IMG/VR virus record: IMGVR_UViG_3300037502_002960
Span: 1-64,000 of that record
DNA from: a virus
DNA length: 64,000 bases
Strand: one strand, 5' to 3'
Under the pieces are notes generated by a model, which worked only from the letters and a program-made list of their open reading frames with translations, did no database searches and had not been told where the DNA came from. Made by a program: the position numbers and the translations under genes. Of this stretch, positions 5,898 to 37,484 are shown in pieces (position 1 is the stretch's first letter; every line of letters begins with the position of its first letter).

Positions 5898-5899
5898 TC

Positions 5900-6397
5900 T
5901 TACTCCCCCTTTTTCTCAAAATCGTACGACTCTAATAATTCTTTAGGTGTTACGTTTACCAAATTGTCATAATTTTTTCTTTTTATACCAGACTTGAAAA
6001 GAACTATATCTATCAGTTCACTACATATAAGCCTGTTGTAATTGTTTGAAAAATTTTTAAACTTAATATTGAATATTAACGATAAAGCCAAAGATAATAC
6101 TTGTTTATAGTCATACTTTTTGCCCAATTCTTTATAGGCATTGTCTAATATTCTATATTTATGTTCACTGGATAAATTTTTAATATAATAGATTTCATGT
6201 ATATTATTGTCTATTCTTAGATTTGTTAGCCTAGTATTTACAAACCTATCAGATTCTATTATAACAGCCTCTTTTAACAGTTCGTTATACGCTACAATCA
6301 TACCAACATGAGTATATTCACTTTTTGTCAATTTTGATATAATTAGGGATATGAAAGATTCTTTGTTTTTTTTAAAAAAAACTACACTTCCTATCAT
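5900..6397 (-). CDS. Permuted papain-like (YiiX/YebB, NlpC/P60) amidase
   Basis: 165 aa; SEYTHVG (His) precedes LGKKYD and LICSELI (Cys), the permuted catalytic order. Confidence 0.8.
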   Translation of the reverse strand: MIGSVVFFKKNKESFISLIISKLTKSEYTHVGMIVAYNELLKEAVIIESDRFVNTRLTNLRIDNNIHEIYYIKNLSSEHKYRILDNAYKELGKKYDYKQVLSLALSLIFNIKFKNFSNNYNRLICSELIDIVLFKSGIKRKNYDNLVNVTPKELLESYDFEKKGE

Positions 6398-6419
6398 TTT
6401 TTCACCCCTTATTAGTAAT

Positions 6420-6448
6420 ATTATACCATTAATTTTAATTTATGTCAA
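6420..6448 (-). promoter_or_regulatory. SigmaA-type promoter upstream of the permuted amidase
   Basis: Minus strand TTGACA-N17-TATAAT. Confidence 0.7.
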
Positions 6449-6459
6449 ATATTACAATA

Positions 6460-7233
6460 TTAAAATCTATATTTTTCTCTGTATCTGAAAGTTATTTCAC
6501 AAGTTCCCTCTATAAAAAAGTCGTTATTGCCAACCTTCATTTCTAGGTCGTGAAAATCACCAATGATATTGTCATATCTATAAACACCAACAATATCAGT
6601 CTCTATCATTTCTTTTTCTGAATTTATATATATGTCTTCTTGGTCTGTTAGGTCTCTAATTTCAAAAATTTCAGAATCTTTAGTAATAGTTATATTGCCT
6701 ATACCGATTTTCTTTATAGATAATTCTGGGTATACAGACGTGTGCCCATCGTTCATAATCGATATCGTATATCCGTTAACATTTGTACTTAGGTCATAAG
6801 GTTCTGTAATCACTAGTGGTGATTCAAATTTTGATGATTTTGTTCTCATCGTAATTTGTAAATAACCCTCTTTTAAACCATTGTGAACAATTCTTGAATC
6901 ACCTACAGGCATACAGTGCATTATTTTGTCTGGGCTATTCTTCATACTCATCGGTCTATAATACCCCTTGTACAACCATCTGATTATGTTATCAAGTTTG
7001 AAATTATCAAAACCTTTATCAAAAGCTAAGTACATTTCAAATTCTCTTGGTGATTCATCTAGGCTGTGAAACATAGGTTCATCAGAACCTTTTACAGATG
7101 TTTCGTTTATTGCTATCCCAGAAACAAATTGTTCATCATACATTCCACTACCAATCATCACATTCTTTATGCCATAATCTTCAGAATATTCACCATCATA
7201 AAAGAATCCTATACTGTCATTAATAGTTCCCAT
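6460..7233 (-). CDS. Distal tail protein (Dit, YomH-like)
   Basis: 257 aa right after the tape measure; FFYDGEYSEDYGI N-terminus and GNNDFFIEG C-terminus typical of Dit. Confidence 0.75.
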   Translation of the reverse strand: MGTINDSIGFFYDGEYSEDYGIKNVMIGSGMYDEQFVSGIAINETSVKGSDEPMFHSLDESPREFEMYLAFDKGFDNFKLDNIIRWLYKGYYRPMSMKNSPDKIMHCMPVGDSRIVHNGLKEGYLQITMRTKSSKFESPLVITEPYDLSTNVNGYTISIMNDGHTSVYPELSIKKIGIGNITITKDSEIFEIRDLTDQEDIYINSEKEMIETDIVGVYRYDNIIGDFHDLEMKVGNNDFFIEGTCEITFRYREKYRF

Positions 7234-7264
7234 TTCTTCACCCCTTTAAAAAGAAGGAGCGGAA

Positions 7265-10200
7265 TTATCTCCCGCTCTTTTTAACCTCTTTGAGTATTTC
7301 TCTTGCGATATTTTTCTCGCTCTTTTTATCTGCACCATGCACATTAACAATAATGTCACCATATGTTACCGTAGAAATCGAACCTGCTGTCTGAAGTTTA
7401 TCCATGTGATTTGATGTTGAAACCTTAGGCAGTATGTTCTTAACTTTATCCATAATCTTTGCCGTGTCTAGTATGTTTTTAGTTTGATTTTCGTTTAAAA
7501 CAAGTTCTTTCTTATGTAACATAGCAATTCTGCCATCATCTCCAGCCCATTCGCCTGTGTAACCTCCACTCCTAAATGGAATTAAGAGTTTCTTACCAAC
7601 TTGTAATCTTCTAGGGTCTATCTTCGAGTTGGCTTCGGCTATTTTCTTCCATTGCAAAGAGTTACCATAGTATTTATTGGCTAAATCCCACATAGTATCA
7701 CCCTTTTTAATAGTATGGTATCTAGGTGATGGAGCAGGCTTAGGTTTACTAGAACTGCTTGAGCCACTAGAGCCAGTAGAGGATTTTGCTGTTGTTTGAG
7801 ACGGTTTTGAAGCTGTTGAACCAGAACCAGTGTAAGCTTTGTATTTGACTTCTTCAGCATCTCTTATGTTTTTAAGAATTCCTTCGAGTTCAAATGTTAA
7901 ATTTTTAACGTCCAAGTTGAACATGTTTTCAAACTCTTTCTTAATTTCACTAGAAAGATTAGCAAAGTTCTCACCAATACTATTGAAATTACCGTTAGCC
8001 ATCTCTTCTAATCTTTGATTCATAGTTTCTAATTCACCATTTAATGTTGAGAAGTTACCCTGGATAAACTGATTTCTCATTTCGCTCCAACGCTGTTCAT
8101 CGTTTATCATTTTCTCATAGAAAGCATTTACTGCAATTGATTCCTGTTCTAGCTTTTCTAACTTACTGTTGTAAGACGCTTCTTCAAAAGCTTTTTCTGT
8201 TTCAAATTTAGCAATTTGCTCTTCTCTTTGAGTGTTTATAGACTGTATGAAAAGCTCATCTTGTCTATTTTTTGTCATATCAACAATTTCTGCGTTTAAA
8301 TTTGTTAATTCTGTTTGCATTTCTGCAAGCTTTTTGCGCCCCTCTAAAGATGTATCACGAGATAAAATGGAGATTTTATTTGTTAAATCGGCTTTCTTTG
8401 CGTTCTTTTCGTTAAGTTGTTCTTTAAATTCTTCTTCATTTTTCTCTTGGTCAATTTTCTTAAGTTTTTCATCATAGACGGCATTTATTTTACTAATTTC
8501 TTCATCGTACTTATCCATCTTACTTTTATGAGCTTTTTCAAGCTCTTTTCTTTCAAAGTCGATTGCTTGTTGAGCCATAGTTTGCATTTGACTGTAATAA
8601 CTTTTAAGCTTTTCAATACCTCTATCAGCCACAGAGCCTCTGACATCTAAAATGTTTTTCTCTGCATTTAGTACAGAAATAGTTATATCTTCTAGCGACT
8701 CTTTTGCGTCTCTAAGTTTTTCCTCGACGTTTTTAGCCTCTTTAGATGATTTTCCATATTTTTTGACGGCATCATTATACATTTTTTGTAAATCACTAAC
8801 CATGTTCTTTGTGGTCGCCTGTTCTTTTCTAAGACTATTGGCTCTTTCTCCCAACAAGCTTAGTTCTTTTTTAATGTTATCTGGGTCAACAAGTCCAGCT
8901 ACCTCAATCTCGAATTCAATGTCATCTGTTTTGTCCTTGATGCCAGTTACAATTTTTTCATAATTTGTTGTGATTTCTGCAACCCAATCCTCGAACATCT
9001 GCGTTGTCTTTTCTTTAATTGAGTTGGTTACATCAATGACTTCTTTTTCTAAACTTTGAATTTTGCTAATATTTGATTCGTATTCTCTCATCAAATCATT
9101 ATATTTATCCCTTTGAGCTTTGGTGTGTTTACTTGTATTCTTAAGCGATGATAATTGTCTCTCTATAGCTTTTTGTCTGTTTTTAGTGTTAGACAAATCT
9201 TTCTTTTGAACGGCTAATAATCTTTGTTCTTCCGTAACAACCTGTTTAAGAGCGTTTCTGTATTTTAATGTTCCTTCGGTCATCGCATTCATTCTTGCTT
9301 CTATTTTACCTATATTACTATTTAGTGCACTAGCTTGTCTTTCCTCTTTATTGTAAGTAAATAAATCGGACAGCTCGTCTGCATAGGCAGAGAATTGGTA
9401 ATCACCATCTAAGTTTGTACCACCAACATAGACTGATTGTGATATAGTACCACTTGTTCCAGAACCTCCAGAACCACTAGTACCACTCTCACCGCTCAAA
9501 GCTCCTACAGAACCAGATTCTTGACCTATTCCACGTCCCATAAAGAAGTTTCTTATGCCACCAAATACCCCAGTTGAAGGTGTAGATGGGACTCTGTTTC
9601 CAGCAGATATAGCCCTGTTAGCTTTGGTAATATAAGTATCTAACGTTGACATAGCGTTTCTAGCTGATGTATTCATATTTATCACAGCAGTTTTAGCATC
9701 GTTTGCTGAACGTCTTATTTTATCTATGACATTTACCTGCTGTTTATGCTTGGTTATCATAGAGTTTGTATTTCTAGATACTCCAGATTTCATATCTTCA
9801 AAAGATTTTGAGCTTTTATCAGCCATATCATTGAATTTATCTCTAAAATTAACAATCTTCTCTACGTCAAGCTTTTCCAAAGATTTTTTAAGGTCTTTTA
9901 CTTTATCATCAGCCTTTTCAACTGAATCTTTAAGTTTGTCGATACCTTTTCTGTCAATTCTACTAGCTAAATTTTTAATATCTTTGAGAGCATCTTCTAA
10001 ATCATTTACAGCACTTTGTGCATTAATAGCACTCTCTCTTAATTCATCTATATCTCCTTTTGAATCAGAAAACAGCGAAGCAACAGAATCTAGAATGTTG
10101 CTAAACATATCTTTTAATGCCGTACCAATTTCCTCTAGTTTGCTAACTTTACCTTCTATTTGACCAAAAGTTCTATCTAAATCTTCTAGAGAAAGTTTTG

Positions 10201-13200
10201 TAGCGGTTAAATCACCTAGAACTTTTTCAACATCATAATTCATTGCCAATTCTAACTCTTCTTCGCCAACAGTTCTTATGTTTTCTTTTACATCGTCTAC
10301 TCCAACATTTAGGTCTTCTAGTTCTCCTCCTAAATCTTGAATAAATGTTATCTCACCATCTCTCATAAAGGCTAACTTTAGATTGCCTGCGTCTGTCTTT
10401 ACAACCTCTATTTTACCATTTACTTTTTCTAACTGTTCTTCCATGGCTGTCAATAGGGGATTTTCTGAGCCATCAGCCATAACTAGCTTGAAATTACCAG
10501 CTTCGTCTTGGACAAATTTCAAATCCTCATCTATTCTTGCTAGCTGATTTTTAAGAGTGTTAAAATAAACCATCTCGTCTTCGGTGTTTCCACTTTCAAT
10601 AAAAGTATTAAGCTTGGTGTTTAAATCTTCAACAGACGATTTAAGCTCATCAGTCTTTTCTTTACTTTTGTCTTTTGCTTCATTGTTTTTCTCAATTTCT
10701 TCCGTGTTTATTTTAATTTCATCAGTATCAGCATTTATACTTAATTCAATATCGTATTCTTCTGCTAGCGCTTCAATTTGATTAAATTGCTTTCTAGCAT
10801 CTTCTGTTAACTTGCCTTCTTCGTCAAACTGTGGTGACCAAGATTCCATCAAGGTAAACATTTCTCTTAACCCACTAATGTTGTCCTCTACATAATCATC
10901 TGTTACACCAAAGAATACAGCTAGTTCTCTTACAGAGTCTTGCCAAGCTGTTGTATTTTCTTTATTTAACTGTCTTAATGCAACCAACATTTCTAGGTGT
11001 TCTTTTATGTTTTTAGTTTCTTCTGAATTAAATCCAAATAAAGCTTCGCTTACTTCTATAGCTTGAACGGTCTTTTCGATATAGTCGTCTAAGCTTTCGT
11101 TTAGTTCACCATCTACTTCTTTGGCTAACATGTCGGCTCTAAGAGCTTGGTTACCCATCTCATTAGTTAGGTTTACAGCCAACCTTTCGGCTTCGCCACT
11201 TGTAAATCCAAGTTTCTCTAAGTCTCCAGTTAAATCATCAAAACTTCCGATACTGTTTTCGGAAACCATATTAGTAACTTCTAATAAGCCGTCCATAGAC
11301 TTTGTAATTCTGTCTATGTTTTCTTGTTCATCGTCACCGTCAAATTCAAAGAAGCTGTCTGGTAAGTTGTTATAAACAGATGTCAATGTATCATTAAATT
11401 TCTTTAAATCTTCATCATCTGTAATTTTATCAGTGTATTCTCTCGTTTTTTCAGATAAATGTTTACCAAATTCTTCCCCAGTGGTTACTAATCTGGCTAC
11501 AGCACTATTGAAAGCTTCTTCTCTTTCCTCTACTGTCAAATCTTCGTTTCTTGCTATTTCCCTAAGTATTCCACTATTACTAGAAATTAAAGTTTCCACA
11601 GCATTTACACTATTTGCAGACATTTGACCTAGGTGACCACTAGCTTCTAATGAAGATAAGGTTACACTTCTTGCCAAATCAGCAGAATCTTGTAAAAGAG
11701 ATTCAAGTTCTTGTTGAGCAACAATAGCCTCAATTGTACGTTTTTGGACACCTTCGCCAGTATCCCAAGTTACCTCTTGGGTGTAACCATAGCTACCAGT
11801 TACATTAATTGTTTCTGTCTGTCCGTCCATCTCTTTTAATCTGTCAATAGTGTTGTAAAGCTCATCTATTTTACTAACACTGTTCTCAATATTGTCGTAT
11901 AATTCTTTAACATCTTGTTCATATTGTTCTAGTGTTAGATTTGCGTATGCCTCAGATAACTCTTCCGCATATTTTACATTATCTTTCAATGCGCTGGCTT
12001 CTCTTAAATGGGCTTGACCCTTTTCGTCAACGAATTTTACCATATTAGGCATTCTGTCCGCTAGCTCATTGTTTATTTCAAGATATTCTTCGTACTCATC
12101 CGTACCTTCTTGAATTAAACCACGCTGAACTCTACCGTTTAAAGTGTTGTACTTGTCAACCAGAGAATCTAGTCCGCCCTCAGTATTTCTATAGCTGTCA
12201 ACAAGCTTATCGTTAGACTCTTTTACTTTTCTCTGTATTTCTCTTTGTTCTTCGAGCTTACCAACAAAAAACTCTACAGCTTTACCGACAGCAAAGAATG
12301 TGGCGCTTAAAGCCAATGATGCTCCTAAGGAAACTAATCCTGCACCTAAACCTTTTAATAAACCTTTTGTTTTTGCTCCAGCCATTTGACCTAACGACAT
12401 TGTTACTTGGTCTACACTTGCTTTAGCTTTTTCCATACCTTTTAAATCTTTTGTGACATCTTTTAAAGACACTCTAAATCCTTTAAACGTACTAATAGCG
12501 TTAAATATTGATGTTCTCATAGATGTTGATGCCCCAGCGACCCCGCCTAAAAGACCTATAACTAGAGGTAAAACACCATTATTTTCAACAAATTTTATAC
12601 CAACATTTCCTAGTGTTGTCAAACCATCAATAATTAAGTTTAAACTACTACTTAACACCGCATCACCGATAGCTAAAGAGAACTCAGTAAAAATGTTTTT
12701 AAGTTTGTTTATTTTTGCTTCAAATGACTCCATGTAGGCTTCGTTTTCTCTAATAGCAGAACCTTGAGATGTTAGAGCGCTTGATGTAGCCTCTGTAGCA
12801 ATATGCCAGTTGTTCATTAATGCTAAGAATCTTGATAGTTGGTATCTACCAGCCGCCTTTACACCAATATTTTGCTTTTCAGCATCAGTAAGTGTATGCC
12901 AAGTTTCACCAAGGTCTTCCAAAATATCTTGGGCTTCTCTAGCTTCACCTGCACTATCTTTTACAGCAACACCAACATTATTTAATGCACTTTCTGCACC
13001 TTCCATTGTTGTCAATCTTGAATAGATTGTCTTTAAAGAGTTACCCAGAACTTCACCTGTTTCACCAGTTAATGTTGAAATAGCTGTAATATGCCCTAAA
13101 CTTTCTTCCATTTCTACACCAAAAGTTTTTGCTACTGATGCAGATTTTGACATACCTTTTGCTAACTGTTGCGTTGAAACGGCAAAGTTGTTGTCAACTT

Positions 13201-27094: not shown

Positions 27095-29120
27095 CTATTC
27101 GAAAGTTCTATATTTTGGTTTTTTAACTGCAACATAACCTGTTGCATTAAACTTAGGTCTATTTTTCTTGCGCTGATTTTTCTTTTCTTCAAGGTATATA
27201 TAGTAGAGTCCGTATGAAACTGCAGAATATCTATCCTTTTCCATTTGGCTTGATACACGCTTGACTCTAGTTTTATTGCCCTGTGCTTCGAATGTCAAGT
27301 TCATAACTTCATCAACGAATAATGATGTTTCCACGTGTGGAATCAATTGTTGTGCAAGTTTTTCAGAATCTTTTTCTTTACTCTCTTCTTTTATGACATT
27401 TTCACTAACAAGTAATTTTAGGTCATGGTTTGAAATGGTAGCCATAAAGTGGTTATGTATATCTGATGCACTTGTCTCTTTTGTGTTAGACATGACATTA
27501 AATATAAGTGGTAGTGAATTTGGTTGTTTATATTTATCATAACTGCTATCATTAACAACAGAATATGAAGGAAATCTGTCTTCTTTTACAAGATAGTCTA
27601 TCAAACCTCTACCTAAACCATTACCATCGACTACAACCATAGATGCATTATATTTGCTAACAAGTTCTTTAACGTAAATTGATTGTTTTTCAAAGTGCAT
27701 ATTGCCTTTATATGTATGTATATTAACTAGGTGTTTAATATAAGTCCCATTACCTCTTGCTGTAAGTTTAAATACAGCAATTGCTGTTGTTGCTGTCTTT
27801 TTCTTTTCTGAACGTGCAACGTCAACAGACAATACGTATTTTACATCAGATTTAACTTTTAAAGCTTCTAACTCTGATTTCACCAATACTCTTGATTTTT
27901 CCAAGTCTTTTAGTTGAACCAAGCTGTTCTCGCTTGAACCAGTCCACACACTCATATATTCTCTCAATTTGTTATCGTGAGGGCTTTTTATCTCTCACTT
28001 CTAGGAGTTTCCCCCATTATACCTTGTTAATTCAAGGCTAGTTCAGCATACATTTTCACCTTCGTACGTTAGTATGTTAAGGTGTTGGACGCTCTTGGCA
28101 GAATTATATTCTAATTTAATAGTTTCATCTGCTATGCGTTACGATACTACATATTTTTTATGATATATAGTTATCTCGGTATTACCATATCTAATTAATA
28201 TTAAAGTTAGGTTTCACCGATATCGCCCAATAATAATTCTGAATATTTCTAATCAGAACGCCAAAAAATTTAGCATATTGAAGTGGACTCATTGACGGGT
28301 CATTTTTTACCTCTTCTATGTAAGCTGGGTCTAGTTGCTCAAACATAACTGGTAAAGTCCAATCATTACCAATCACAAAAGCTGATTTGCCCATAGCCAT
28401 TTCTGTCATAACGCTAAATAATTGTTCCCAAGCATACGACTGTTTTGAACTTGCCGTAGTAACGTAGCTCAATTGTTTATGGATATCATATTTTGAAACT
28501 TTACCATCTGCACCCTTACGGTTGTTTGCTAGTAATGGTAATAGTACCTCACCGATAATTTCTCTGTGTTTTTCCATACTAACAATCTCTTCAAAACTAA
28601 GTCCGTGTCTTCTGAGACCACGTGAACCTTGACTCGCAACAACAATATCTAAGATACTGCCGTTCCAAAACGTAAGCCTTGTAAAGTCTTTTGCAAAAGT
28701 ATGTTTTTTAACTTCGCCTTTTAACAAGGGAATAAAATTCCAAATAGCCTCTATATTAGCTTGACTGATTTGGGCGGCTTGGTCTTTTTGTGGCGCAACC
28801 AAAGATAATTTAATTCCTGGATAAAATATACATTTAAGATACATACTTAAAATATTTAGGAAAGATTTACTCGTTCCCCTAGTAGATGTGATGTACTAAT
28901 AAACCTTCTTGTATCTCGCCATAATTCTTAAAAATAATCTCTGAAAAGGGTAAAGTTCAAAAGAACCGTCTTTAGGCTTTATATAGTCTATAAATAAATC
29001 TGGGTAGTATTGAAAAAACGCTAACATATTTGCAAATATTGGTAGCATATCTTCAACGTTTTTAACATTAGTTCCTTGAACATTCTCTAATTCAGACCAT
29101 GGTTTCCACTTAGAAGTCAT
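27095..29120 (-). CDS. terL: Terminase large subunit, split: exon 1 29120-28272 (in-frame TAG at 28896-28898), group I intron, exon 2 27964-27095
   Basis: The three track ORFs join into one reading frame of about 572 codons: LYPFQR (adenine binding), TRGTSKS (Walker A), LSFEE (Walker B), spliced QYAREYMSVW, SVDVAR and KDRYSA (nuclease). Confidence 0.85.
27965..28271 (-). mobile_element. ORF-less group I intron (307 nt) in the terminase gene
   Basis: Exon 1 ends GCU; intron starts AAAUUUUUUGGCG (P1/P10 guide) and ends in G. Core AUCGGUGAAACCU..GGUAAUACCGAG; P7 GCAUA/UAUGC. Removal restores the reading frame. Confidence 0.88.
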
Positions 29121-29158: not shown

Positions 29159-30151
29159 TTAATCATCTAAATCACCGTCTTCACCAGAATCGTTCAATCC
29201 AAGCTCATCTTCATAATCTTCATCAATTTCAACTGGTGTTAAATCTTCTTTATAAAACTCTTCCAACTCATCTTTCATCTCTTCTGGAATGTCTCTAAGA
29301 ATCTCTTTACCAACCAATCTATGATAATAATTAGACAACGCAATCATCATGCCATCAACAATATCTCTTTCAAACTCTACTGGCGGTGGTTGTCTCCAAC
29401 CTCTTTTTTCAACTTCCTCCCATATCTGAGAAAAGCTTCTTATACCAGTAGCATCATCAATGCCTTTTCTATCAACAGGTCTAAAGCCTGCTGACTTCAT
29501 CATATCTTCATATGTTTTACTAATTTTACTATAGTCTGTCCACTCTTTACCTCTTCTTAGCCTGTCTCTATCGACAGACAGATAAGCTAACTGCATTAAC
29601 ATATCAATGTGTGTAGGTGTGTGTATTTCATGAGTAGACCTCATATCTTGATAGAATTTCTCTAATTGCAAGTATTCTTTTTGATTATAACCTGTACCCC
29701 ATTTATCAACCATTTCATCTGAGTATTCTATAATCTTTCCTGTAGTAGTTTCTATTGTATTCGGTGGATTTACCGACGATAAATCAACATTGCCACTATC
29801 TTGTATTCCATCGCTATTCATAAAAGTTTTACCTTTATATTGATGAAGTGAACCAACCATACTAAGGTAACTACCAATAGGATTCCTTTTTTCCTTATTT
29901 TTCATTACTTTATCCCATTCTTCTTGATAGAATGGTTTATCTATTTGTCTTAAAAATCCGATTACCTCTTCCAAGTTTTCATAATCTATGCTCTCTCTGA
30001 CGCAATCTCGACAAATATCAAGTCTACCGTCTGGGAATAGAGGGCTATCAACTTTATAAAAAGTGCTTTCTGGTTTTTCTTTGCCACACTTTCCTTTGCA
30101 AAGTTTTTTTGGAACAGGACTGGATTTCTTTTCTATCTTCCTAGGTTTCAA
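29159..30151 (-). CDS. Putative terminase small subunit (YonG-like, N-terminal Zn finger)
   Basis: 330 aa; CKGKC..CRDC; DKWGTGY; immediately upstream of terL. Confidence 0.55.
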   Translation of the reverse strand: MKPRKIEKKSSPVPKKLCKGKCGKEKPESTFYKVDSPLFPDGRLDICRDCVRESIDYENLEEVIGFLRQIDKPFYQEEWDKVMKNKEKRNPIGSYLSMVGSLHQYKGKTFMNSDGIQDSGNVDLSSVNPPNTIETTTGKIIEYSDEMVDKWGTGYNQKEYLQLEKFYQDMRSTHEIHTPTHIDMLMQLAYLSVDRDRLRRGKEWTDYSKISKTYEDMMKSAGFRPVDRKGIDDATGIRSFSQIWEEVEKRGWRQPPPVEFERDIVDGMMIALSNYYHRLVGKEILRDIPEEMKDELEEFYKEDLTPVEIDEDYEDELGLNDSGEDGDLDD

Positions 30152-30307
30152 AAATAAAACCTCCTGTCTAATACTAATGTTAATAAAAGAAAATTACTCC
30201 CTCATATAATAGTGCTTTACTGAGGTGTTTTTTCACCCTCTTTTATTAACTTTTTTTATTTATAGGTATTTTTACCTATAAAAATAAACTTTAACAAGCA
30301 CAACCTG

Positions 30308-31525
30308 TTAAAGTTCAATTCTTATAGGGAGTATTCTGTCTTCTTCAAAAACAACAATTGATTGTGATGGTTTAGTATCATATCCAAGTTGAATACTGTA
30401 GTCTGTTGAACCTTGTAAACAACCACACCCTAATGTCATTCTACCGTGATTCTCTTCGTTGAAGCTCATATGATGAAAATGACCATAAATCAATAAATCA
30501 TAAAATTCATTATCTGACGAAATAAATTTATTAATTTTTTCTTTTGAAGTCTTTTTTAATAAATCACCGTGAACAGTTTTTACTTTTCTACCATTTACAT
30601 CAAAAGACATATCAAAATTACTATTCTTTTTATCAATAATTTTAATGTTTGGATTGCCGATTAAACTAATAAATGACTTGACGCTTGCATCAATAATATT
30701 TTCTGCACTATCACCAGAAATTGTTACAGCCTTATCATACATTCTTGAATGGTTACCAAGAACACTTCCAAGATATTCAACATCTAGCTCTTCTGCTAAA
30801 GTAAGGAGAAAAGAATTAACTATTTCTGTAGCCTTAACAATCTGTTCACTAAATGTAAATTCAATATCGTATGATTGTGTTGGTCTCATGTATCCACCCT
30901 CAACTAAATCGCCAACACCAATTACTTTAACTTTATTCACGTTAAATAATTTACAGTAATGAAACACCTCATTAGCATATTTCTCTACTCTTTTTTTTGC
31001 AATCTCATAATCATAACTATCTGTTTTTAATCCAATGTGCCAATCTGTCATAGGTACAACAATTTCATTTTCTGTAGTAACAAAATTATGTTTCTTGAAT
31101 TTTTCAAACTTTACATCTTTAAAATTATCAACCACCTCTTCAATAAAAAGAGTTTTGTCTATTACGTTTCTTTTAACTTTATTTAGCTCTCTGAATTGAT
31201 TTTGTGCGTTTCTTTTTGCGTAACTAAGTTCACCAACTAATTCTTTTATCGACTCTAGCTTGTTGTCGGAAACCATATCTACATACTTTGCCACTTCTGG
31301 TAATTCGCCAATAGATTTTTGATACCTTTTAATCAATTGTCTATATGTTTCACATCTATCAGAATTATCATAACCTTCTTTTTCCATCATCTTTTTATGT
31401 AAAGACCAATTACATTTACCACTTGGTGAAGCTTTTTGTAATTCTTTTTTGATTTTTACAGCAACATTTAAATGCTCTTCTGTTACAGTAATCTCTTCAC
31501 CTTTTTTATTTATATAACTTCTCAA
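30308..31525 (-). CDS. Calcineurin-like metallophosphoesterase with N-terminal coiled coil
   Basis: DWH, GDLVEG, GNH, HGD, GHFHH motifs. Confidence 0.8.
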   Translation of the reverse strand: MRSYINKKGEEITVTEEHLNVAVKIKKELQKASPSGKCNWSLHKKMMEKEGYDNSDRCETYRQLIKRYQKSIGELPEVAKYVDMVSDNKLESIKELVGELSYAKRNAQNQFRELNKVKRNVIDKTLFIEEVVDNFKDVKFEKFKKHNFVTTENEIVVPMTDWHIGLKTDSYDYEIAKKRVEKYANEVFHYCKLFNVNKVKVIGVGDLVEGGYMRPTQSYDIEFTFSEQIVKATEIVNSFLLTLAEELDVEYLGSVLGNHSRMYDKAVTISGDSAENIIDASVKSFISLIGNPNIKIIDKKNSNFDMSFDVNGRKVKTVHGDLLKKTSKEKINKFISSDNEFYDLLIYGHFHHMSFNEENHGRMTLGCGCLQGSTDYSIQLGYDTKPSQSIVVFEEDRILPIRIEL

Positions 31526-31577
31526 AAACTATCACCTCAAATGTTCAGAATATTCAGAATATTTTAATTAAAAAAAA

Positions 31578-31799
31578 TTAATCTGAATCAGTTTCCAACT
31601 CTTCTTCTTCAACTTCTTTTTCAATCTCTTGAGTAATCTTAATATCTAATTTAATCTCTTTGTATTCAAATCTTTTAAGAAATTCAAGAATATCTACAGC
31701 TACAGTTTCTGCACTATCCTTATCAATCTTTTCATGAATGAGAAGTTGTTCAGCATCTAATAATCCCTGTGTATTTAATGTGCTACTAATTTTAGCCAT
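31578..31799 (-). CDS. Small acidic protein (YonK-like)
   Basis: 73 aa, RBS AAGGAG; position matches SPbeta yonK. Confidence 0.55.
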   Translation of the reverse strand: MAKISSTLNTQGLLDAEQLLIHEKIDKDSAETVAVDILEFLKRFEYKEIKLDIKITQEIEKEVEEEELETDSD

Positions 31800-31820
31800 A
31801 ATAAAACTCCTTTTTTAATA

Positions 31821-32333
31821 TTTTAACACCAAAAAGAATTTAGCGAGGGATTGCACCCTCGTTTTAAATTATAAACGCTTGTTTCGGTCACATTGGAATA
31901 TAATATTCTTGGTAGGTAGCTATCCTATCCTCCATATCATACTTTTTGCCCAAAAGTAGGGGTTTCACCTACAACACTCACATGGTTGCTAGAATTAAAA
32001 TATCAGCTCTCTACTGTATGTAATATAGTTAAAGCAGATTTATGCAAGTGTACTCAGTGCCGTCTTATAGTCTGTCACCAGACGTCAACTGCTTAAGTCT
32101 TTTAAGTTGTGGCGTGGAATTACTATTATTAACCACTCTTTGTCCTCCACTATCAACCCGACATCACTGATACCATAAGCTTACTTTATAATTTAAAAAT
32201 ATCTTATCTCATCGCTTTCTAGCTGTGACCATTGCTTAACCTTTTCAGATTTAATTTTTCAATGGTTGAGACAGATTACCTTATCGACTACCAATCGATT
32301 ACTCAGTCAGCTAAATTCTTTTTAGTGTTAAAA
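31821..32333 (-). ncRNA. ROOL-like large structured RNA (about 510 nt)
   Basis: 24-bp terminal helix (31821-31844/32310-32333, one G.U on the minus strand); nested 14-bp helix (31862-31875/32185-32198); GGUCAC/GUGACC pseudoknot; AGGAUAGCUACCU and GUGACCGAA motifs recalled from ROOL; located in a phage tRNA cluster. Confidence 0.65.
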
Positions 32334-32350
32334 ATAAAATTTAGGTAATT

Positions 32351-32393
32351 TGTGCAGGGAGCTGGATTTGAACCAGACTTTATGTTCCCTGCA
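32351..32393 (-). ncRNA. tRNA minihelix (acceptor stem plus T arm only)
   Basis: GCAGGGA-ACAUAAAGU-CUGG UUCAAAU CCAG-C-UCCCUGC-A. Confidence 0.55.
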
Positions 32394-32402
32394 TAATACA
32401 AG

Positions 32403-32711
32403 CGCCCCATAGATGATTCGAACATCTGACCCACGCTTTAGCTTACCAACTACAGTTTTCACTGCCACGTAGTGTTTGTGGTCTGGACTATAACTTCATC
32501 ATTTCAGATGCGACACGTTTAGTCTCTACGGAATCTCAACCAATAGTTTTACCTGCATAAGCCATTCAAACTATCTTGTTTCCTCGGTATTGCCATCAGC
32601 ATTATCTGTTAAGGTTTCACCGATACGGTGTCGTGCATTTCATAAGTTATTTTTCCCTATGAAAGCTCCTATAACTGAAGAGCGTTGCTCTATCCACTGA
32701 GCTAATGGGGC
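32403..32711 (-). tRNA. tRNA-Arg(UCU) interrupted by a group I intron (exons 32711-32678 and 32441-32403); no encoded CCA
   Basis: Spliced cloverleaf GCCCCAU/AUGGGGC; D loop with A20 (Arg identity); anticodon arm ACGCU-CUUCUAA-AGCGU; T loop UUCGAAU. Confidence 0.9.
32442..32677 (-). mobile_element. Group I intron (236 nt) inserted after U34 of tRNA-Arg(UCU)
   Basis: P1 CUU/GAG and P10 UAG/CUA; core AUCGGUGAAACCU..GGCAAUACCGAG; P7 GACUA/UAGUC; terminal G. Confidence 0.88.
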
Positions 32712-32732
32712 TTGATAAATTAATGCTATCTC

Positions 32733-33032
32733 GACTCAAAAAGCTACTTATGCCCCTTATCAAAGTTAAGTCAAGTATAGCCCTCTGCCTACTTAACTAG
32801 TATTTCAGCAGAAGTTTTTTGTGGCATCTTGTTTTAGCGACGCATCGCTTGATAAACTTGTGGTCAACAGTTTTAATCTTTAAAAATTACCCTACAGAAT
32901 AAACTGTAGTCCTAATCAGTAAAAACAAAACCTACACAAGAGCTTATGACCTATCTTGGTACGCTACTTATTGTAAGCGTGACAGGTACTATTTGAGCCA
33001 GACCTCTTATTAGTCGCATATCTGGTGGCGAC
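32733..33032 (-). ncRNA. Unassigned structured RNA of about 300 nt with several pseudoknots
   Basis: No ORF; 5' H-type pseudoknot, closing helix GGCUCAAA/UUUGAGUC, several internal helices (see findings). Confidence 0.5.
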
Positions 33033-33253
33033 AAATATTTGATATATATATTAACATAAGTTAATTTATATAAAAAATCAAGATTCTTTTGGGTTTCTGT
33101 CTAAACTTAAAACCATATAGTTTGAATTCCAAAAATTATATCTTTTTGAATTTAAACTATCTTCTTCTAGCCCTGTATCATAACTGTATGAACCTTTATA
33201 AGTTACACAGTCATTATAGAATGGTGTTTTTGCAGAGCCTTCTGTATCTTTTC

Positions 33254-33466
33254 TTAAATTGATTCTTCATATTCACCCAAGGATTCATATTCAAAATTGT
33301 CTTCTCCATATTTTCTAATTGCGGAGTAAAGTGGTCGATTTTCACATCTCTTTTTTCTACTGTCAATCAAATGTTGTTTAAATCTTTTTTCTACAGTTGA
33401 GAATGTTTTTCCTACATATTCTTTGCCATTAATCAAGTTTTTTATAACATAGATTGTTCCTTTCAA
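33254..33466 (-). pseudogene. Truncated GIY-YIG homing endonuclease
   Basis: GTIYVIKNLINGKEYVGKT..RFKQH, stops at 70 aa before the catalytic Glu helix, Asn and DNA-binding domain. Confidence 0.75.
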
Positions 33467-33538
33467 AAAAATTCCTCCGTTTTTAATTATATATGGATGG
33501 TTTTGAATACCAGAATCTCACCTTTAGATGATACTTTA

Positions 33539-33613
33539 TGGTGGACTTGGAGAATCCCGACATCTCAACCTTTCCCTTATGAGGGGAATGCTCTTCCTTT
33601 GAGCTACAAGTCC
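33539..33613 (-). tRNA. tRNA-Ile2 (CAU, lysidine type; Met not excluded), CCA encoded
   Basis: GGACUUG/CAAGUCC-A-CCA; anticodon arm UUCCC-CUCAUAA-GGGAA resembles phage Ile2 tRNAs; atypical T loop GUCGGGA. Confidence 0.8.
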
Positions 33614-33703
33614 AGAATAGCCATGAGCAACATGGCATAATCTAACCGATAAGTCGGTCGTTTACTTTATTATTCCTTGTAGAATAACACGATTAATCGT
33701 CTG

Positions 33704-33788
33704 AGTGTGGTGCAATGGGTCGAACATTGCAACTCAACATCTATAGGCTAGCCATAATGTTGCGCTTTTCCAATTAAGCTAACCACAC
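33704..33788 (-). ncRNA. tRNA-like RNA with extended anticodon arm
   Basis: Intact acceptor (GUGUGGU/ACCACAC), D arm and T arm (UUCGACC); the CAACA/UGUUG stem encloses 18 nt instead of 7. Confidence 0.7.
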
Positions 33789-33895
33789 ATAATTATGATG
33801 TCCGCCCACTTTAATCAACTTTTAAATAACAGAAAGTGGGGAGACACCAAGAAATAAGTTAACTCATTCAATAGTGATTTCTCACTATAAATAAC

Positions 33896-33924
33896 ATTAT
33901 ATCATAATATTTTATTTTTGTCAA
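33896..33924 (-). promoter_or_regulatory. SigmaA promoter for the tRNA/ncRNA island
   Basis: TTGACA-N17-TATAAT with TG extension. Confidence 0.8.
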
Positions 33925-33943
33925 GCATTTTGAAACATTATTT

Positions 33944-35152
33944 TTAAATATCCCCAAAAATTCTACTTGCTTCACTTCTAACGTCAATATCCAGTACTAC
34001 AATGCCAACATTCTTATTACCTTTAAGAGATTCTACGGCATGTTTTAATCCATTGTCTTTAGTGTACTTATACTCTGACTGATTAATATCACCACTAAAA
34101 GCAATAACAGAATTTTTTGCAATTCTTGTACCAACAAGTTTAATTTGTTTGATATCTAAATCTTCTGCCTCATCAACAAACATAAATGTGTCTTCAAAGC
34201 TCATGCCTTTAATATAAAAAGGAATCTCTTTATCCAAAACACCTCTCTGTTCTAGGTAAAAAGCTTCTTGTTCACCGCCATCAAGGTGCTGAACAATTGG
34301 TTTAAAGAAACCGTTTGTTTTTTCTCCTTTATCACCAGATAAGAACCCAATTTCCTCTCCACTGCCAATAGGATTTCTGATTACCATAATTTTAGACTGT
34401 TCACCTTTATCTAAAACAGAATGTAGTGCAACTTTTGTTGTTAAGAATGTTTTACCACTTCCATATGTACCTAGAATAAATTTAATTGGAATATCTTTGT
34501 TATTTAATAAGTCTAATGCGCACTCCTGTAAATCATTCTCTGGATTGATATGTTTAGATTTGTCATCCCATCTAGGTAATTTTAGTTTTACATGTTCTTC
34601 ACCATTCCATCTGTACTTGTCAACAGTTTCTTTATTTAAATTCCTAACAATCAAATACTGATTTACTAGTAGTTCATATTTATTATGATTTAAGTTTGAA
34701 TAAAATTCTGCCATTTCTTTGTCATCCATATCAACAAACTTGTAACCGCCATAAATATCATATAAAGATTCGTTTTCAACAAAAGCCATTTCAACACCAT
34801 ATTGCTTACACTTTTGTCTCAACAGTCTATCATTTGTAATCATCCCATAGCCTTTTTCGATTGCAATATTTAAAATAATATTATCAACATAATCTCCGTC
34901 AAGACCATCTTTTTCTTCAAACTTATAATCATTAATATCTTCAAACTCATACTCGTTTTCGTCTAATATACGTTTTAGATTTCTGATATTCCATTGTAGC
35001 GTACTATCAGATTTTCTTGTTCTCTCAAGATGTTCAATCTCTCTGTTAATATCAGATGGAATAACACAATCGTATTCTTTAATTACCTCTGGGTTTTTTA
35101 ACAAAACATTAGTATCAATAATATATTTCATAAACAGTCTCCTATTCGTCAA
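33944..35152 (-). CDS. phoH: PhoH-family ATPase with N-terminal PIN domain
   Basis: IIDTNVLL (PIN), GTYGSGKT (Walker A), IGFLSG, VDEAED, SGDINQ; probable start ATG at 35131. Confidence 0.9.
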   Translation of the reverse strand: MTNRRLFMKYIIDTNVLLKNPEVIKEYDCVIPSDINREIEHLERTRKSDSTLQWNIRNLKRILDENEYEFEDINDYKFEEKDGLDGDYVDNIILNIAIEKGYGMITNDRLLRQKCKQYGVEMAFVENESLYDIYGGYKFVDMDDKEMAEFYSNLNHNKYELLVNQYLIVRNLNKETVDKYRWNGEEHVKLKLPRWDDKSKHINPENDLQECALDLLNNKDIPIKFILGTYGSGKTFLTTKVALHSVLDKGEQSKIMVIRNPIGSGEEIGFLSGDKGEKTNGFFKPIVQHLDGGEQEAFYLEQRGVLDKEIPFYIKGMSFEDTFMFVDEAEDLDIKQIKLVGTRIAKNSVIAFSGDINQSEYKYTKDNGLKHAVESLKGNKNVGIVVLDIDVRSEASRIFGDI

Positions 35153-35459
35153 ACTCTCTTATATTTTTAAGACCTTCTTTAAGTTTCTTAGATGGTTCAA
35201 CAGACAACTTGTAATATTCATCTGTTTTCATATGCTCTTTTGTTATTGGGTTCATTATTTTTCTACTTTTAACTTTTTTAGTTGATAGAGAGAAAAGTTT
35301 AGTGTATTTGACTTTCTCACCAATCATAAGAGCTGTAATTATTTTTTCAGCTAAGACCTCAAGGATTAGGGCAACTTCTCCTTTTCTTATTCTAAGTTCA
35401 CGAACCCTGTCGTCACTCCAAACTTCGTGAACAAGTTCAGATAATTTCAATTTAATCAC
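35142..35459 (-). CDS. HU/IHF-like DNA-binding protein
   Basis: ALMIGEKV..F..KSRKIMNPITKEHM....PSKKLKE matches the HU arm pattern. Confidence 0.75.
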   Translation of the reverse strand: MIKLKLSELVHEVWSDDRVRELRIRKGEVALILEVLAEKIITALMIGEKVKYTKLFSLSTKKVKSRKIMNPITKEHMKTDEYYKLSVEPSKKLKEGLKNIREFDE

Positions 35460-35729
35460 CTACTTTTCTAACACATGAATTAATTCTGAATTTATCTGTT
35501 CTAAATCTTCATCATAAAATTCTAATTGATATTTGTCGTTTACAACAACGAAAATCTTGTCCATTAAACTTTCGTTTGTAAAGTCTTTTGTTTCTGTAGA
35601 TTTTCTAAAAACCTTATACTTAGACAGTGATTCATTTATTTTAAAAACTTTGTCCATAAAAGTAAATTCATTATCAATATTAACTACACACCATGTTTTA
35701 GCATTTTTATTAAAATTATTCTTCATCAT
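35460..35729 (-). CDS. Hypothetical protein
   Basis: 89 aa, coupled in the operon, RBS GAGG. Confidence 0.6.
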   Translation of the reverse strand: MMKNNFNKNAKTWCVVNIDNEFTFMDKVFKINESLSKYKVFRKSTETKDFTNESLMDKIFVVVNDKYQLEFYDEDLEQINSELIHVLEK

Positions 35730-36054
35730 AGCTTACCTCACCGAAAATCATTGTGGTTTGAGTTTTACTTAAATTTGAAAACGGTATTTCTTTTGAACCA
35801 TTTTTTAACCTATTAAGCTTGTTTCTACTCATAATATCTTTATCTTCAATCGTTTCACTAACATCTTCTTCCCTATGCCAAACTAAAAAATTAGCCATTC
35901 CCTCTAGCATATATCTTACCGAGTTGCCATCCCAATTATTATGTATTTCATCTTTCCAAATTTCAAGTATCTTTTCTACTAATTCAACTTTTTCAGACAA
36001 CTCAAGATTTTTATCTAAAAAAATCTTATTGCCATCTGGTAATTTAAGATTCAT
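35716..36054 (-). CDS. Hypothetical protein
   Basis: 112 aa, overlapping coupling, RBS GGGG. Confidence 0.65.
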   Translation of the reverse strand: MNLKLPDGNKIFLDKNLELSEKVELVEKILEIWKDEIHNNWDGNSVRYMLEGMANFLVWHREEDVSETIEDKDIMSRNKLNRLKNGSKEIPFSNLSKTQTTMIFGEVSYDEE

Positions 36055-36493
36055 CTTTGTCCACCCCGTGTTTTATGTAACCGCATTTATACATGGATTC
36101 TTTCCACATTTCATTATTTTTTGAAACTATTTTTTCAACTATCTTATCAAAATATTTATATATCCCTTGTTTACTAATCTTTTTTGTAATATTATATATA
36201 TCCGACAACGTGTGACCCTCGAACATCATATTTATAATCATGCGTTCGTTGTCATTAAATTTGCATCTTTTTATCGTATCCTCAAGAGAAACATAAAGCG
36301 CTATAACCTCTTGGTTTAGTTCTGAAATAGAACCTGCCTCATCAATACTAATCGCTATATTATCTATTCTTGGGTATGTTTTGTCAATACTTTCTCTATG
36401 TTTTATCAAATATTTTACTACATTGTGGTCGGATAATGTAAGAAGGTAATAATCTCTTTCTTTAGCTTTAATATCTATTGAGACAGAACCCAT
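36044..36493 (-). CDS. Sigma region-4-like HTH protein (possible late regulator)
   Basis: FNDNERMIINMMFEGHTLSDI..ISKQGIYKYFDKIVEKI resembles a sigma4 HTH. Confidence 0.6.
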   Translation of the reverse strand: MGSVSIDIKAKERDYYLLTLSDHNVVKYLIKHRESIDKTYPRIDNIAISIDEAGSISELNQEVIALYVSLEDTIKRCKFNDNERMIINMMFEGHTLSDIYNITKKISKQGIYKYFDKIVEKIVSKNNEMWKESMYKCGYIKHGVDKDES

Positions 36494-36523
36494 TTAAACA
36501 CCGCCCTTAATTATTATATATTA

Positions 36524-36626
36524 AGTATATCATTATTTTTTACTTTTGTCAAGTAAAAAATATACAATATTTCAAATATTCTGAATATTTTTTACCTTTG
36601 ACATAAATAAAAAATGATGTTATAAT
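36524..36626. promoter_or_regulatory. Divergent sigmaA promoter pair with a CodY-like triplet between the -35 boxes
   Basis: Minus: TTGACA(36552-36547)-N17-TATACT. Plus: TTGACA(36598)-N17-TATAAT(36621). AATATTTCA-AATATTCTG-AATATTTTT at 36566-36592. Confidence 0.75.
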
Positions 36627-36665
36627 CTTAGCAGGTAGTTAAAAAATAGACTTGGTGGTGAAATA

Positions 36666-37484
36666 TTGATTGAAATTTTGCATGAGATAAAGAGAATGTA
36701 TGGCGAGGCTTACATACAAGTACCAAATAAGATTTTCAAAAATATATCTTCTGTTACAAATGATTCTAGACAAAACTCATTTTGCTTTTCATATATAACT
36801 TTGTTAGGATTTCTGTATAAATATACTGCTTACGTAAATCCAAATTTAAATACATATGTACAGGCAAAAGATATAAAGACTTTATTGGGCTACAGTGAAA
36901 AAACAAAGACAATCAACAGGTTAATAAAGGAAAACGGTATTCTAGAGGACAAAGGTTTTATAAAAACAACAAAAAAGATACCTGTATACGTAAGTTATAG
37001 TGATGATGAAATAAACGGTTATAAAATTATAGAGTTTACAACATTAGATAATATAAAAAACAGAGAAGAATACGATATGTTTAAAAAAATTATAAAAAAC
37101 AGAAACTACAAAATTCAAGAACCGATATATCTTTTTAATGTTGACGGGAAACACGGTACTCTCTATGACTACTCTAACACATTTAAAATAAATATATCTG
37201 AGTTTATTAAATTTATCGAAAACAAAGAAATGGGTAACATGGACATTATGTTTTATTATTATATTAAAAGTCAAACACAGAACAAAAACCATAGAGTTGC
37301 CCCAATATCAATATCATTACTAGAAAAGAATATTGGTTTTTCTAATTCTTCAATCTACAAAACAATAACAAAACTAGAAAAGCTAAATTTAATTTCGGTT
37401 ACAAAGAAAGGTTGGCAAAACATAAAAGATGGTAATAACCCAGAGCCAAATGATTTTTTCTTGAGTTACTTTTTAAGCAGGTAG
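36666..37484 (+). CDS. Winged-HTH DNA-binding protein, putative replication initiator
   Basis: 272 aa; two HTH-like segments (DIKTLLGYSEKTKTINRLIK; SISLLEKNIGFSNSSIYKTITKLEKLNLI); followed by long palindromes. Confidence 0.5.
   Translation: MIEILHEIKRMYGEAYIQVPNKIFKNISSVTNDSRQNSFCFSYITLLGFLYKYTAYVNPNLNTYVQAKDIKTLLGYSEKTKTINRLIKENGILEDKGFIKTTKKIPVYVSYSDDEINGYKIIEFTTLDNIKNREEYDMFKKIIKNRNYKIQEPIYLFNVDGKHGTLYDYSNTFKINISEFIKFIENKEMGNMDIMFYYYIKSQTQNKNHRVAPISISLLEKNIGFSNSSIYKTITKLEKLNLISVTKKGWQNIKDGNNPEPNDFFLSYFLSR

Follow-up and report, generated by a model that had tools for sequence, protein, structure and literature searches.

Locus and flagged element

The stretch of DNA analyzed here, the window, comprises positions 1 to 64,000 of the 83,359-nucleotide (nt) IMG/VR virus record IMGVR_UViG_3300037502_002960 (G000), which has an estimated completeness of 51%. 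The window is AT-rich (G+C 25 to 37%), and its genes include those for a portal protein, a terminase-like protein, a PIN-PhoH protein and a phosphoesterase. The ~2.1 kb between the phoH gene (33947 to 35152, minus strand) and an open reading frame (ORF) of 73 residues (31578 to 31799) contain as their sole long ORF a 70-residue GIY-YIG stub and otherwise hold a noncoding operon of tRNA-like units and other RNAs. The element under study, 33032 to 32733 on the minus strand, lies within this operon and is flanked by the GIY-YIG stub and a tRNA-Arg-like gene. A predicted promoter, TTGACA-17 nt-TG-TATAAT at 33896 to 33924 (minus strand), matches the consensus at 12 of 12 positions with an added TG extension and, judged from this match, would drive the whole RNA operon, the element included.

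A sequence-only reading had flagged the element as an unassigned, noncoding RNA of ~300 nt with several pseudoknots inside a tRNA operon. This observation is partly confirmed, and the interpretation attached to it is partly supported. The location in an operon of tRNAs and noncoding RNAs is borne out, and the stretch has no ORF of ≥40 residues, the longest comprising 38. By sequence, two consecutive parts of one predicted phage transcript make up the flagged stretch: a unit of the type III antitoxin CptI and, after it, a separate segment of ~280 nt, here called segment X.

The 5′ pseudoknot is a CptI antitoxin unit

The 5′ knot of the element, at 32998 to 33032, had been described as an H-type pseudoknot matching no known RNA class. 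The pseudoknot is real. By sequence and covarying base pairs it is a unit of CptI, the RNA with which bacteria restrain the suicide toxin CptN, i.e., it belongs to a published type III antitoxin family for which a crystal structure is available (PDB 4RMO; PMC4627078). The unit comprises 46 nt at 32991 to 33036 (minus strand). With element position p corresponding to window position 33033 − p on the minus strand, stem 1 is formed by GUCGC (positions 1 to 5; 33032 to 33028) and GCGAC (16 to 20; 33017 to 33013), and stem 2 by CCAGAU (8 to 13; 33025 to 33020) and GUCUGG (30 to 35; 33003 to 32998). An A-rich loop spans 33012 to 33004, and the unit ends in CUCAAAU at 32997 to 32991.

The evidence for this identity is of several kinds. 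First, related units precede a toxin gene of the CptIN family. R1, a covariance model covering 95 nt from the 5′ end of the element, hit at 24.6 bits the viral contig L002, from a phage with a PhoH only 38% identical; in the L002 copy, stem 1 is preserved, as is the inner half of stem 2, and two stem-2 pairs are changed on both sides. A degenerate knot pattern was built from this copy, that of the window and that of L009, the one IMG/VR relative, which was fetched from viral contigs with a 30-nt pattern from the 5′ exon of the tRNA-Arg-like gene. In viral contigs, the pattern found L012 and L014. In L012, a promoter precedes a tandem pair of 46-nt units, and a terminator-like hairpin and an ORF of 162 residues come after them, which is the layout of a textbook type III locus. 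At 204.9 bits (cut-off 90), the ORF belongs to NCBIfam NF047359.1, “type III toxin-antitoxin system CptIN family toxin”, and it matches the CptN of PDB 4rmo (E 1.5e-22); no Pfam or PADLOC model matched it. Among 185,579 species-representative genomes, the pattern found 61 loci, mostly in Clostridia and other Bacillota, with a CptN homologue <400 nt downstream in 50; one of the other 11 has just 52 nt of sequence left.

Second, the pseudoknot is supported by covariation over 64 distinct units. Among these, 99.3% of the cells are paired, and the window unit forms each of the 11 pairs. At pair 13-39, 53 units have U-A and 11 have C-G; at pair 14-38, C-G occurs in 55, U-A in six and A-U in two, both A-U units being those of this phage and L009. 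The covariation score was reached by 0 of 500 shuffles, and controls with a slid partner strand gave 11 to 44% paired. Variation was possible at three stem-2 pairs and the outermost stem-1 pair, the inner pairs of the two stems being set by the pattern. In many loci, the first repeat has GUUGC/GCAAC in place of GUCGC/GCGAC, a further compensated stem-1 pair. In 100 shuffles of the window, the expectation of the knot pattern was 0.00.

Third, a profile hidden Markov model (HMM) of 60 units, from which the four toxin-less phage copies were excluded, matched the window at 33035 to 32991 (E 6.3e-12, 41.4 bits), its sole hit in the window and in the 83-kb contig; the same unit was matched at E 0.00043 by an HMM built on 33 distinct units of the other repeat type. 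Fourth, the motif (U)CAAAU bounds the bacterial units, and, for nearly all loci listed, the sequence of 47 nt ahead of the first unit terminates in CAAAU or a close variant. The window unit has UCAAAU on both sides, the upstream copy (33037 to 33042, minus strand) being its presumed 5′ processing site; in L009, the motif is present on the 3′ side only, and a tRNA 3′ end lies on the 5′ side.

The unit also resembles the characterized antitoxin of Eubacterium rectale. This CptI is described (Rao et al. 2015, PMC4627078) as a classic H-type pseudoknot of 45 nt with a one-base loop L1 and a 9-nt A-rich loop L2, which is excised by CptN, ends in a cyclic phosphate on A45 and is fully antitoxic as a single repeat. 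The window unit shares the length (45 to 46 nt), the two stems, the very short L1 and the 9-nt A-rich L2 (PDB 4RMO; PMC4627078; PMC3401426), together with the GAUAUG and GGUC core and a conserved, presumably single-stranded A-rich end. Compared by eye with the E. rectale repeat as encoded by a primer in Table 2 of PMC4627078, three of the five stem-1 pairs are changed on both sides and still pair. The setting differs. The window unit is single, as opposed to 1.9 to 3.4 tandem repeats in cptIN loci (Blower et al. 2012, PMC3401426), and, unlike those loci, it has no terminator and no cptN and lies in a phage operon of tRNAs and noncoding RNAs.

Comparison with Rfam gave no family hit for the element at the gathering score. 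With Rfam release 15, positions 30000 to 37000 had no match in the element at E ≤ 10, and 351 nt searched alone gave chance-level rows only (12 to 17 bits, E 1.2 to 9.6; the best at 16.7 bits against a gathering score of 43). Because no Rfam model matches the knot, the published CptI family is absent from this library, and its members are easily mistaken for something new.

Toxin-less CptI units recur in phages

No CptN gene was found at the window locus or in the whole 83-kb contig, and this contig contains a single CptI unit. More generally, CptN was found in none of five viral records (G000; G001, containing L002; G002, containing L010; G003, containing L014; and G004, containing L009), of which G001 and G004 are rated 100% complete; the same search found CptN in three of three records known to contain it. 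A CptI unit is present in four of the five, none being found in the locus of G002.

A wider scan of viral contigs returned 17 stretches with a unit, 11 with CptN, in prophage-like contigs, and six without it (L009, L013/L002, L014, L078, L080 and L081). The surroundings of the toxin-less units are diverse. In L002, the unit directly follows a consensus promoter and precedes a small ORF and a PIN-PhoH gene; that of L014 is separated by ~17 nt from the ribosome-binding site of phoH downstream. In L078 and L080, the RNA island around the unit includes a tRNA as well as two 6A RNAs and one skipping-rope RNA; in the 122-kb contig L078, the order over 6790 to 8200 is two tandem 6A RNAs, the skipping-rope RNA, ~600 nt, the CptI unit (7621 to 7666), ~460 nt and the tRNA. 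In the 144-kb contig L081, one promoter within 1560 to 2440 is followed by a single CptI unit and a hairpin, then by 37-nt repeats (5.2 perfect copies), a terminator and ToxN (PF13958), i.e., a foreign CptI unit is joined to the front of a complete toxIN locus. As a separate observation, the 6A units of L078 look by eye like a hairpin, an A-rich stretch and a second short stem in tandem copies of ~51 nt, which would resemble the general build of type III antitoxins.

A gene of the PhoH family adjoins the toxin-less unit in four viral contigs from at least three lineages: at 33947 to 35152 in the window, 5803 to 6432 in L009, 6001 to 7191 in L002 and 1100 to 1759 in L014. Two of these genes are of the PIN-PhoH type and two of a short type. 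Genes for PhoH are common within accessory regions of large phages, and the adjacency may reflect a coincidence of such regions or a functional link.

The 33 cptIN loci listed in the 2012 survey of Blower (PMC3401426) are all chromosomal, with none in phages, and, according to a 2025 survey (PMC12283969), besides one toxIN prophage, no phage type III systems had been reported before that survey's own tenpN hits. We found no description of a phage-encoded CptI in the main texts of the literature consulted; supplementary tables, which this search did not cover, could list some.

Segment X is probably separate from the antitoxin unit

The remaining ~280 nt (32990 to 32712, minus strand) were found only in this phage, L009 and the sequencing runs compared below; judged from these sequences, segment X is a clade-specific RNA that fills the interval from the CptI unit to the intron-bearing tRNA-Arg. 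It is 94 to 100% identical to L009 outside one hairpin with 54% identity, which is still a hairpin there. In minimum free energy (MFE) predictions, the versions of this phage and L009 fold into the same five stem-loops with z-scores of −2.97 (0 of 200 shuffles) and −2.57 (2 of 200). Most likely, segment X forms this predicted row of five stem-loops, one of them freely variable, and it may be a co-transcribed structured RNA under selection. We consider the evidence for a defined structure modest.

All five stem-loops lie on the minus strand and are present in both MFE predictions. Hairpin 1 (32950 to 32986), in which CCUGUC/GAUAGG encloses ACGCU/AGCGU, sits where cptIN loci have a terminator hairpin and is without a U tract here; a G-to-A change at position 50 turns a G·U into an A-U pair in L009 and in all four compared runs. 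The variable hairpin (32868 to 32932) is long in both phages and is flanked by a stem of CUUGUG (32940 to 32935) and CACAAG (32862 to 32857); two of its pairs are changed on both sides and kept, and the paired changes co-occur in the contigs of runs X4 and X5. The small hairpin AGCGA/UCGCU (32836 to 32849) has an invariant stem, a variable loop base at position 191 and an A-rich stretch behind it. The hairpin CUUCUGCU/GGCAGAGG (32782 to 32814) carries C225 to U, converting C-G to U·G, in L009 and the four runs. Finally, a 3′ helix, GCUAUACUUGACUU/GAGUCGAGAUAGC, with an inner hairpin (32725 to 32781) is also part of the RNAalifold consensus, and its change A302 to G in X2 and X5 keeps the pair as U·G. 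This helix extends past 32733, and the 3′ end of the element is more likely at about 32725 to 32712 than at the 32733 proposed in the sequence-only reading; we infer that the 3′ end of segment X is set by the 5′ end of tRNA-Arg through RNase P.

These features bear on the architecture originally proposed, in which the whole ~300 nt formed one ornate RNA. All complementary strings named for it are present on the minus strand at the positions given, including, besides the knot, a closing helix GGCUCAAA (34 to 41)/UUUGAGUC (293 to 300), hairpins ACGCU (53 to 57)/AGCGU (68 to 72), CUACAG/CUGUAG (within 124 to 140) and AGCGA (184 to 188)/UCGCU (193 to 197), a long helix UUUUGUUUU (103 to 111)/AAAACAAGA (198 to 206), a loop pairing GGUCA (82 to 86)/UGACC (167 to 171), and a 3′ pseudoknot made of CUUCUGCU (219 to 226)/GGCAGAGG (244 to 251), the fourth hairpin above, and GUUAAGU (236 to 242)/ACUUAAC (262 to 268). 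The 300 nt fold with a z-score of −2.04 (3 of 200 shuffles as good), and the other strand with −1.12 (31 of 200). A single RNA of this kind is not supported: L002, L014, L078 and L081 have the first 46 nt and not the rest, making these 46 nt an independent module. The closing helix is not supported as proposed: position 295 is C in L009 and in all four runs, giving A·C; the 3′ helix above competes with it, and GAGUC in the 3′ strand of the closing helix can alternatively take part in a helix of 13 bp formed with the tail beyond 32733. Nor is the long helix supported as proposed, with one compensated pair and one mismatch in L009 and two mismatches in the X5 contig, and it competes with the local hairpin that has two compensatory pairs. 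CUACAG/CUGUAG sits in a hairpin tip that is replaced in L009. The other helices proposed, including the second stem of the 3′ knot, are invariant among the sequences compared.

Searches outside this clade were negative. R2, a model of the 3′ 159 nt of segment X, had no hits on 87 loci and five whole records. Four exact patterns from the window retrieved nothing or L009 only from viral contigs (an internal 21-mer retrieved L009 only), and neither two patterns in metagenome contigs nor one exact pattern in genome contigs gave a match. Against 50,697 phage records, BLAST returned a match inside the insert of the tRNA gene and two chance rows only.

Several other origins of the element or of segment X were considered. 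No CptN remnant was present in it at E ≤ 1e-3. Second or degenerate CptI units, suggested by the A-rich stretch after AGCGA/UCGCU, which over 12 nt is similar to the loop of other CptI repeats, are not supported, with no profile hit in segment X. An origin as the 3′ part of a decayed GIY-YIG gene fails in that a full-length relative of 219 residues matches the stub only, the best row in the element having E 0.45 over nine residues, and relatives without the endonuclease still carry the element. A tracrRNA or guide RNA for the Cas12f module of this phage was rejected too, the element having only chance words of 10 to 13 nt in common with the rest of the contig. An 11-mer, AGAGGGCUAUA, is common to the proposed 3′ knot and the ToxI repeat junction of L081 (BLAST E 0.34 against a 6.6-kb target set, noticed post hoc), and a search for ToxN in 401 Bacilli-class genomes found one, too few for a profile of the ToxI subfamily.

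Segment X resembles ROOL, GOLLD and other large ornate RNAs in being noncoding, in its several predicted helices and in its place beside the tRNA genes of a Firmicutes-type phage; it differs from them in its size of ~280 nt, in being best modelled as a row of hairpins, in its restriction to one narrow clade and in having no Rfam match. The tRNA cluster of phage T4 contains stable small non-tRNA RNAs of unknown function. These parallel segment X in its presumed co-transcription with tRNAs and release by tRNA enzymes; sizes differ, and the likeness is one of arrangement only.

Relatives and operon architecture

The boundaries of the element are informed by its relatives. Parts of the operon are contained in 17 sequencing-run rows from 12 studies, and four runs from four studies (X2, X4, X5 and X6) were compared to the window. 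None of the rows is listed as RNA data; X5 may be of this kind. Contigs from all four cover the element, with zero coverage in the bin 32880 to 32951 in X6. For X2, X4 and X5, the contigs cease to match the window at 33032 to 33036 and match it again at 33583 to 33606, with 546 to 573 nt skipped; because the contigs break there, the 5′ edge of the element is a true unit boundary. For the same reason, the GIY-YIG stub and a remnant of ~220 nt are an insertion, private to this phage and directly 5′ of the CptI unit, that truncated the tRNA upstream.

L009 is part of a record of 116,838 nt that has terminal repeats. In this relative, ARAGORN detects a normal tRNA (5370 to 5442) that ends 3 nt upstream of GUCGC; it is followed by the element and, 21 nt after GAGUC, by tRNA-Arg. 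Identity to L009 varies along the operon: the knot unit is 96% identical, the tail 100%, the tRNA-Arg exons 97 to 100% and their insert 96%, as compared to 82 to 85% for the upstream spacers and tRNA(CAU) and 48% after tRNA-Arg. Read by eye, the neighboring proteins are strongly diverged. A minihelix and a 510-nt RNA that the sequence-only reading had called ROOL-like (31821 to 32400, minus strand) are missing from L009, and the complete record around it, which keeps the element, has no BLAST match to them; this speaks against the proposal that the element is the partner of that RNA. The contigs of X2 and X5 cover this region, and the minihelix and 510-nt RNA are an optional module of the operon. 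Rfam gave no ROOL match at E ≤ 10 in 30000 to 37000.

The GIY-YIG stub (33254 to 33466, minus strand; Pfam GIY-YIG, E 3e-08) has its own ribosome-binding site and aligns with only the N-terminal 69 residues of the full-length relative. It replaced the T arm and the 3′ acceptor strand of the tRNA that is intact in L009, and the decayed 5′ two-thirds of the interrupted tRNA persist at about 33535 to 33490 within the insertion region (33254 to 33541, minus strand). This arrangement suggests that a free-standing homing endonuclease inserted into a tRNA gene and later decayed. Separately, its nearest relatives, 59% identical and from human faecal phage records (L005, L007 and L008), have stop codons after 15 to 28 residues when translated with table 11, which may indicate a recoded stop in those phages.

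The tRNA-Arg-like gene (32403 to 32711, minus strand) starts 21 nt after GAGUC and has an insert of ~236 nt that interrupts the anticodon loop. Searched alone, the stretch with the insert matches Intron_gpI at 22.7 bits (E 0.00077), which is below the gathering score of 50 and not visible in larger searches. The 484-kb uncultured phage LR756508.1 has a 71% match to the 3′ part of the insert, inside a tRNA array that also contains a HEARO RNA. ARAGORN detects 0 tRNAs across the 64-kb window and Rfam one (33542 to 33613, 50.9 bits); the tRNA-shaped units of the operon are all atypical, with an odd T loop, an enlarged anticodon arm (33704 to 33788, a unit with 98% identity to L009), the insert, and the minihelix (32350 to 32392).

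Queries with PhoH and the phosphoesterase found two viral-contig loci each, and the phosphoesterase of one of these, L010, is 63% identical to that of this phage. At the same genomic place, L010 has an operon (4400 to 6450) of five tRNAs alternating with noncoding spacers of ~250 to 600 nt that have no Rfam match, and a group I intron lies at 10255 to 10550; neither R1 nor R2 matches L010. Elsewhere in the window, terminase-like ORFs at 27095 to 29120 (minus strand) lie in three pieces (74, 217 and 290 residues) with short gaps between them.

Discussion

We suggest that the CptI unit is a phage-borne decoy antidote against host CptN, followed by a separate, clade-specific structured RNA, and assign this joint reading a probability of ~0.6. 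A phage with an antitoxin and without the toxin gains if its host carries the toxin, as is the case for phage PhiTE, and the unit is therefore read as an antidote. In the proposed mechanism, the operon would be transcribed during infection, and the unit would be released by tRNA-processing enzymes, by host CptN cutting at the UCAAAU motifs, or by both. The released unit would bind free CptN in the manner of the host's own CptI; the bound RNase would stay inactive when host transcription fails, and abortive infection would thereby be blocked.

Phage PhiTE of Pectobacterium provides the precedent. According to PMC5086642, it escapes ToxIN by means of a pseudo-ToxI RNA, a phage-encoded look-alike of a type III antitoxin that lacks a toxin, neutralizes the host toxin and prevents abortive infection. 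The window unit has the features of such a mimic in that it is phage-encoded, similar to a host antitoxin and toxin-less. The two cases differ in that pseudo-ToxI belongs to the ToxI/ToxN family and its effect was reportedly shown with repeat-expanding escape mutants, while the unit described here is natural and single; also, unlike pseudo-ToxI, its release may rely on flanking tRNA processing. The recurrence of toxin-less units in several unrelated viral contigs and the high identity of the knot unit to L009, amid neighboring proteins that by eye have diverged and ahead of the 48% identity after tRNA-Arg, favor the antidote role.

A number of observations weigh against this proposal. CptI antitoxins are highly selective for the cognate CptN (PMC4627078). 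Of the 64 units, only those of this phage and L009 have A-U at the stem-2 pair 14-38, and no bacterial cptIN locus with this stem-2 variant was found in species genomes or metagenome contigs. CptIN is not known to abort phage infection, and two cptIN loci gave no protection against six coliphages in Escherichia coli (PMC3401426). The phage has one unit rather than an array, and 10 to 11 of the 61 bacterial loci are also without CptN, showing that a toxin-less unit can be a leftover. The collection of units is biased toward this subtype by the pairs fixed in the pattern. As for segment X, the material compared consists of two full sequences and variant tables; of nine substitutions outside the variable hairpin, placed on the MFE structure of this phage, three fall on unpaired bases, three keep a pair and three break one, which lends no net support, and the alifold consensus that has 0 broken pairs was itself computed from these two sequences. 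The high identity from CptI to tRNA-Arg could reflect recent lateral transfer beside a homing endonuclease and an intron, not constraint.

Two other explanations deserve attention, both of which we consider unlikely. The CptI unit might be a non-functional leftover of a captured cptIN locus, or the block from CptI to tRNA-Arg a recent passenger of mobile DNA with segment X as a mere spacer. The toxin-less bacterial loci and the single unit would fit this, as would the GIY-YIG stub at the edge of the block, exactly where homology to relatives breaks, the identity of 94 to 100% in the block as opposed to 82 to 85% in upstream parts of the operon, and the substitutions in segment X, which are neutral relative to the single-sequence fold. 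Yet the knot is intact, with lineage-specific compensated pairs (A-U in two of 64 units) and its bounding motifs kept; toxin-less units occur in at least four different phage contexts; and a hairpin with 54% identity in the middle of the block is hard to reconcile with a simple recent transfer.

It is similarly improbable that the knot is a cis-acting phage RNA element, for instance one that stabilizes 5′ ends, serves as a processing signal or “punctuation”, or regulates phoH or the tRNA genes next to it. The position of the unit right after the promoter in L002 and shortly before the phoH ribosome-binding site in L014, and the PhoH-family gene beside it in this phage, L009, L002 and L014, are what such an element would predict. 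By sequence, however, it is the same RNA, with the same bounding motif, as that before CptN in 50 of 61 bacterial loci, and it has other settings in the RNA island of L078 and upstream of toxIN in L081. Finally, that the whole ~300 nt are one new ornate RNA closed by GGCUCAAA/UUUGAGUC, possibly working with the ROOL-like RNA, is very improbable: the complementary segments, the fold z-score, the lack of an Rfam match and the constant adjacency of knot and segment X in this clade are in its favor, but the first 46 nt are a self-sufficient known module, a conserved cleavage-type motif, CUCAAAU, separates the knot from segment X, the 3′ strand of the closing helix has a better local partner, and the 510-nt RNA is absent from the complete genome holding L009.

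More broadly, the 2-kb tRNA operon might be an RNA anti-defense island in which modules between tRNA-shaped handles are decoys for different host RNA-binding defense nucleases, a possibility to which we give little weight. The modules of such an island would be a tRNA mimic, the CptI unit, segment X, the intron-bearing tRNA, the minihelix and the 510-nt RNA, and in this speculative and doubtful scenario segment X would be a new kind of decoy. If true, similar islands, such as that of L078 with 6A and skipping-rope RNAs beside CptI, would give a function to several orphan RNA motifs.

If phages in Firmicutes are truly under threat from CptN, a well-kept, toxin-less CptI in several unrelated large phages is what one would expect to see; in that case, the phage unit and host CptN would form a pair for a direct test. 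The placement between tRNAs suggests a simple route by which a small RNA antidote may be expressed and released by host tRNA-processing enzymes.

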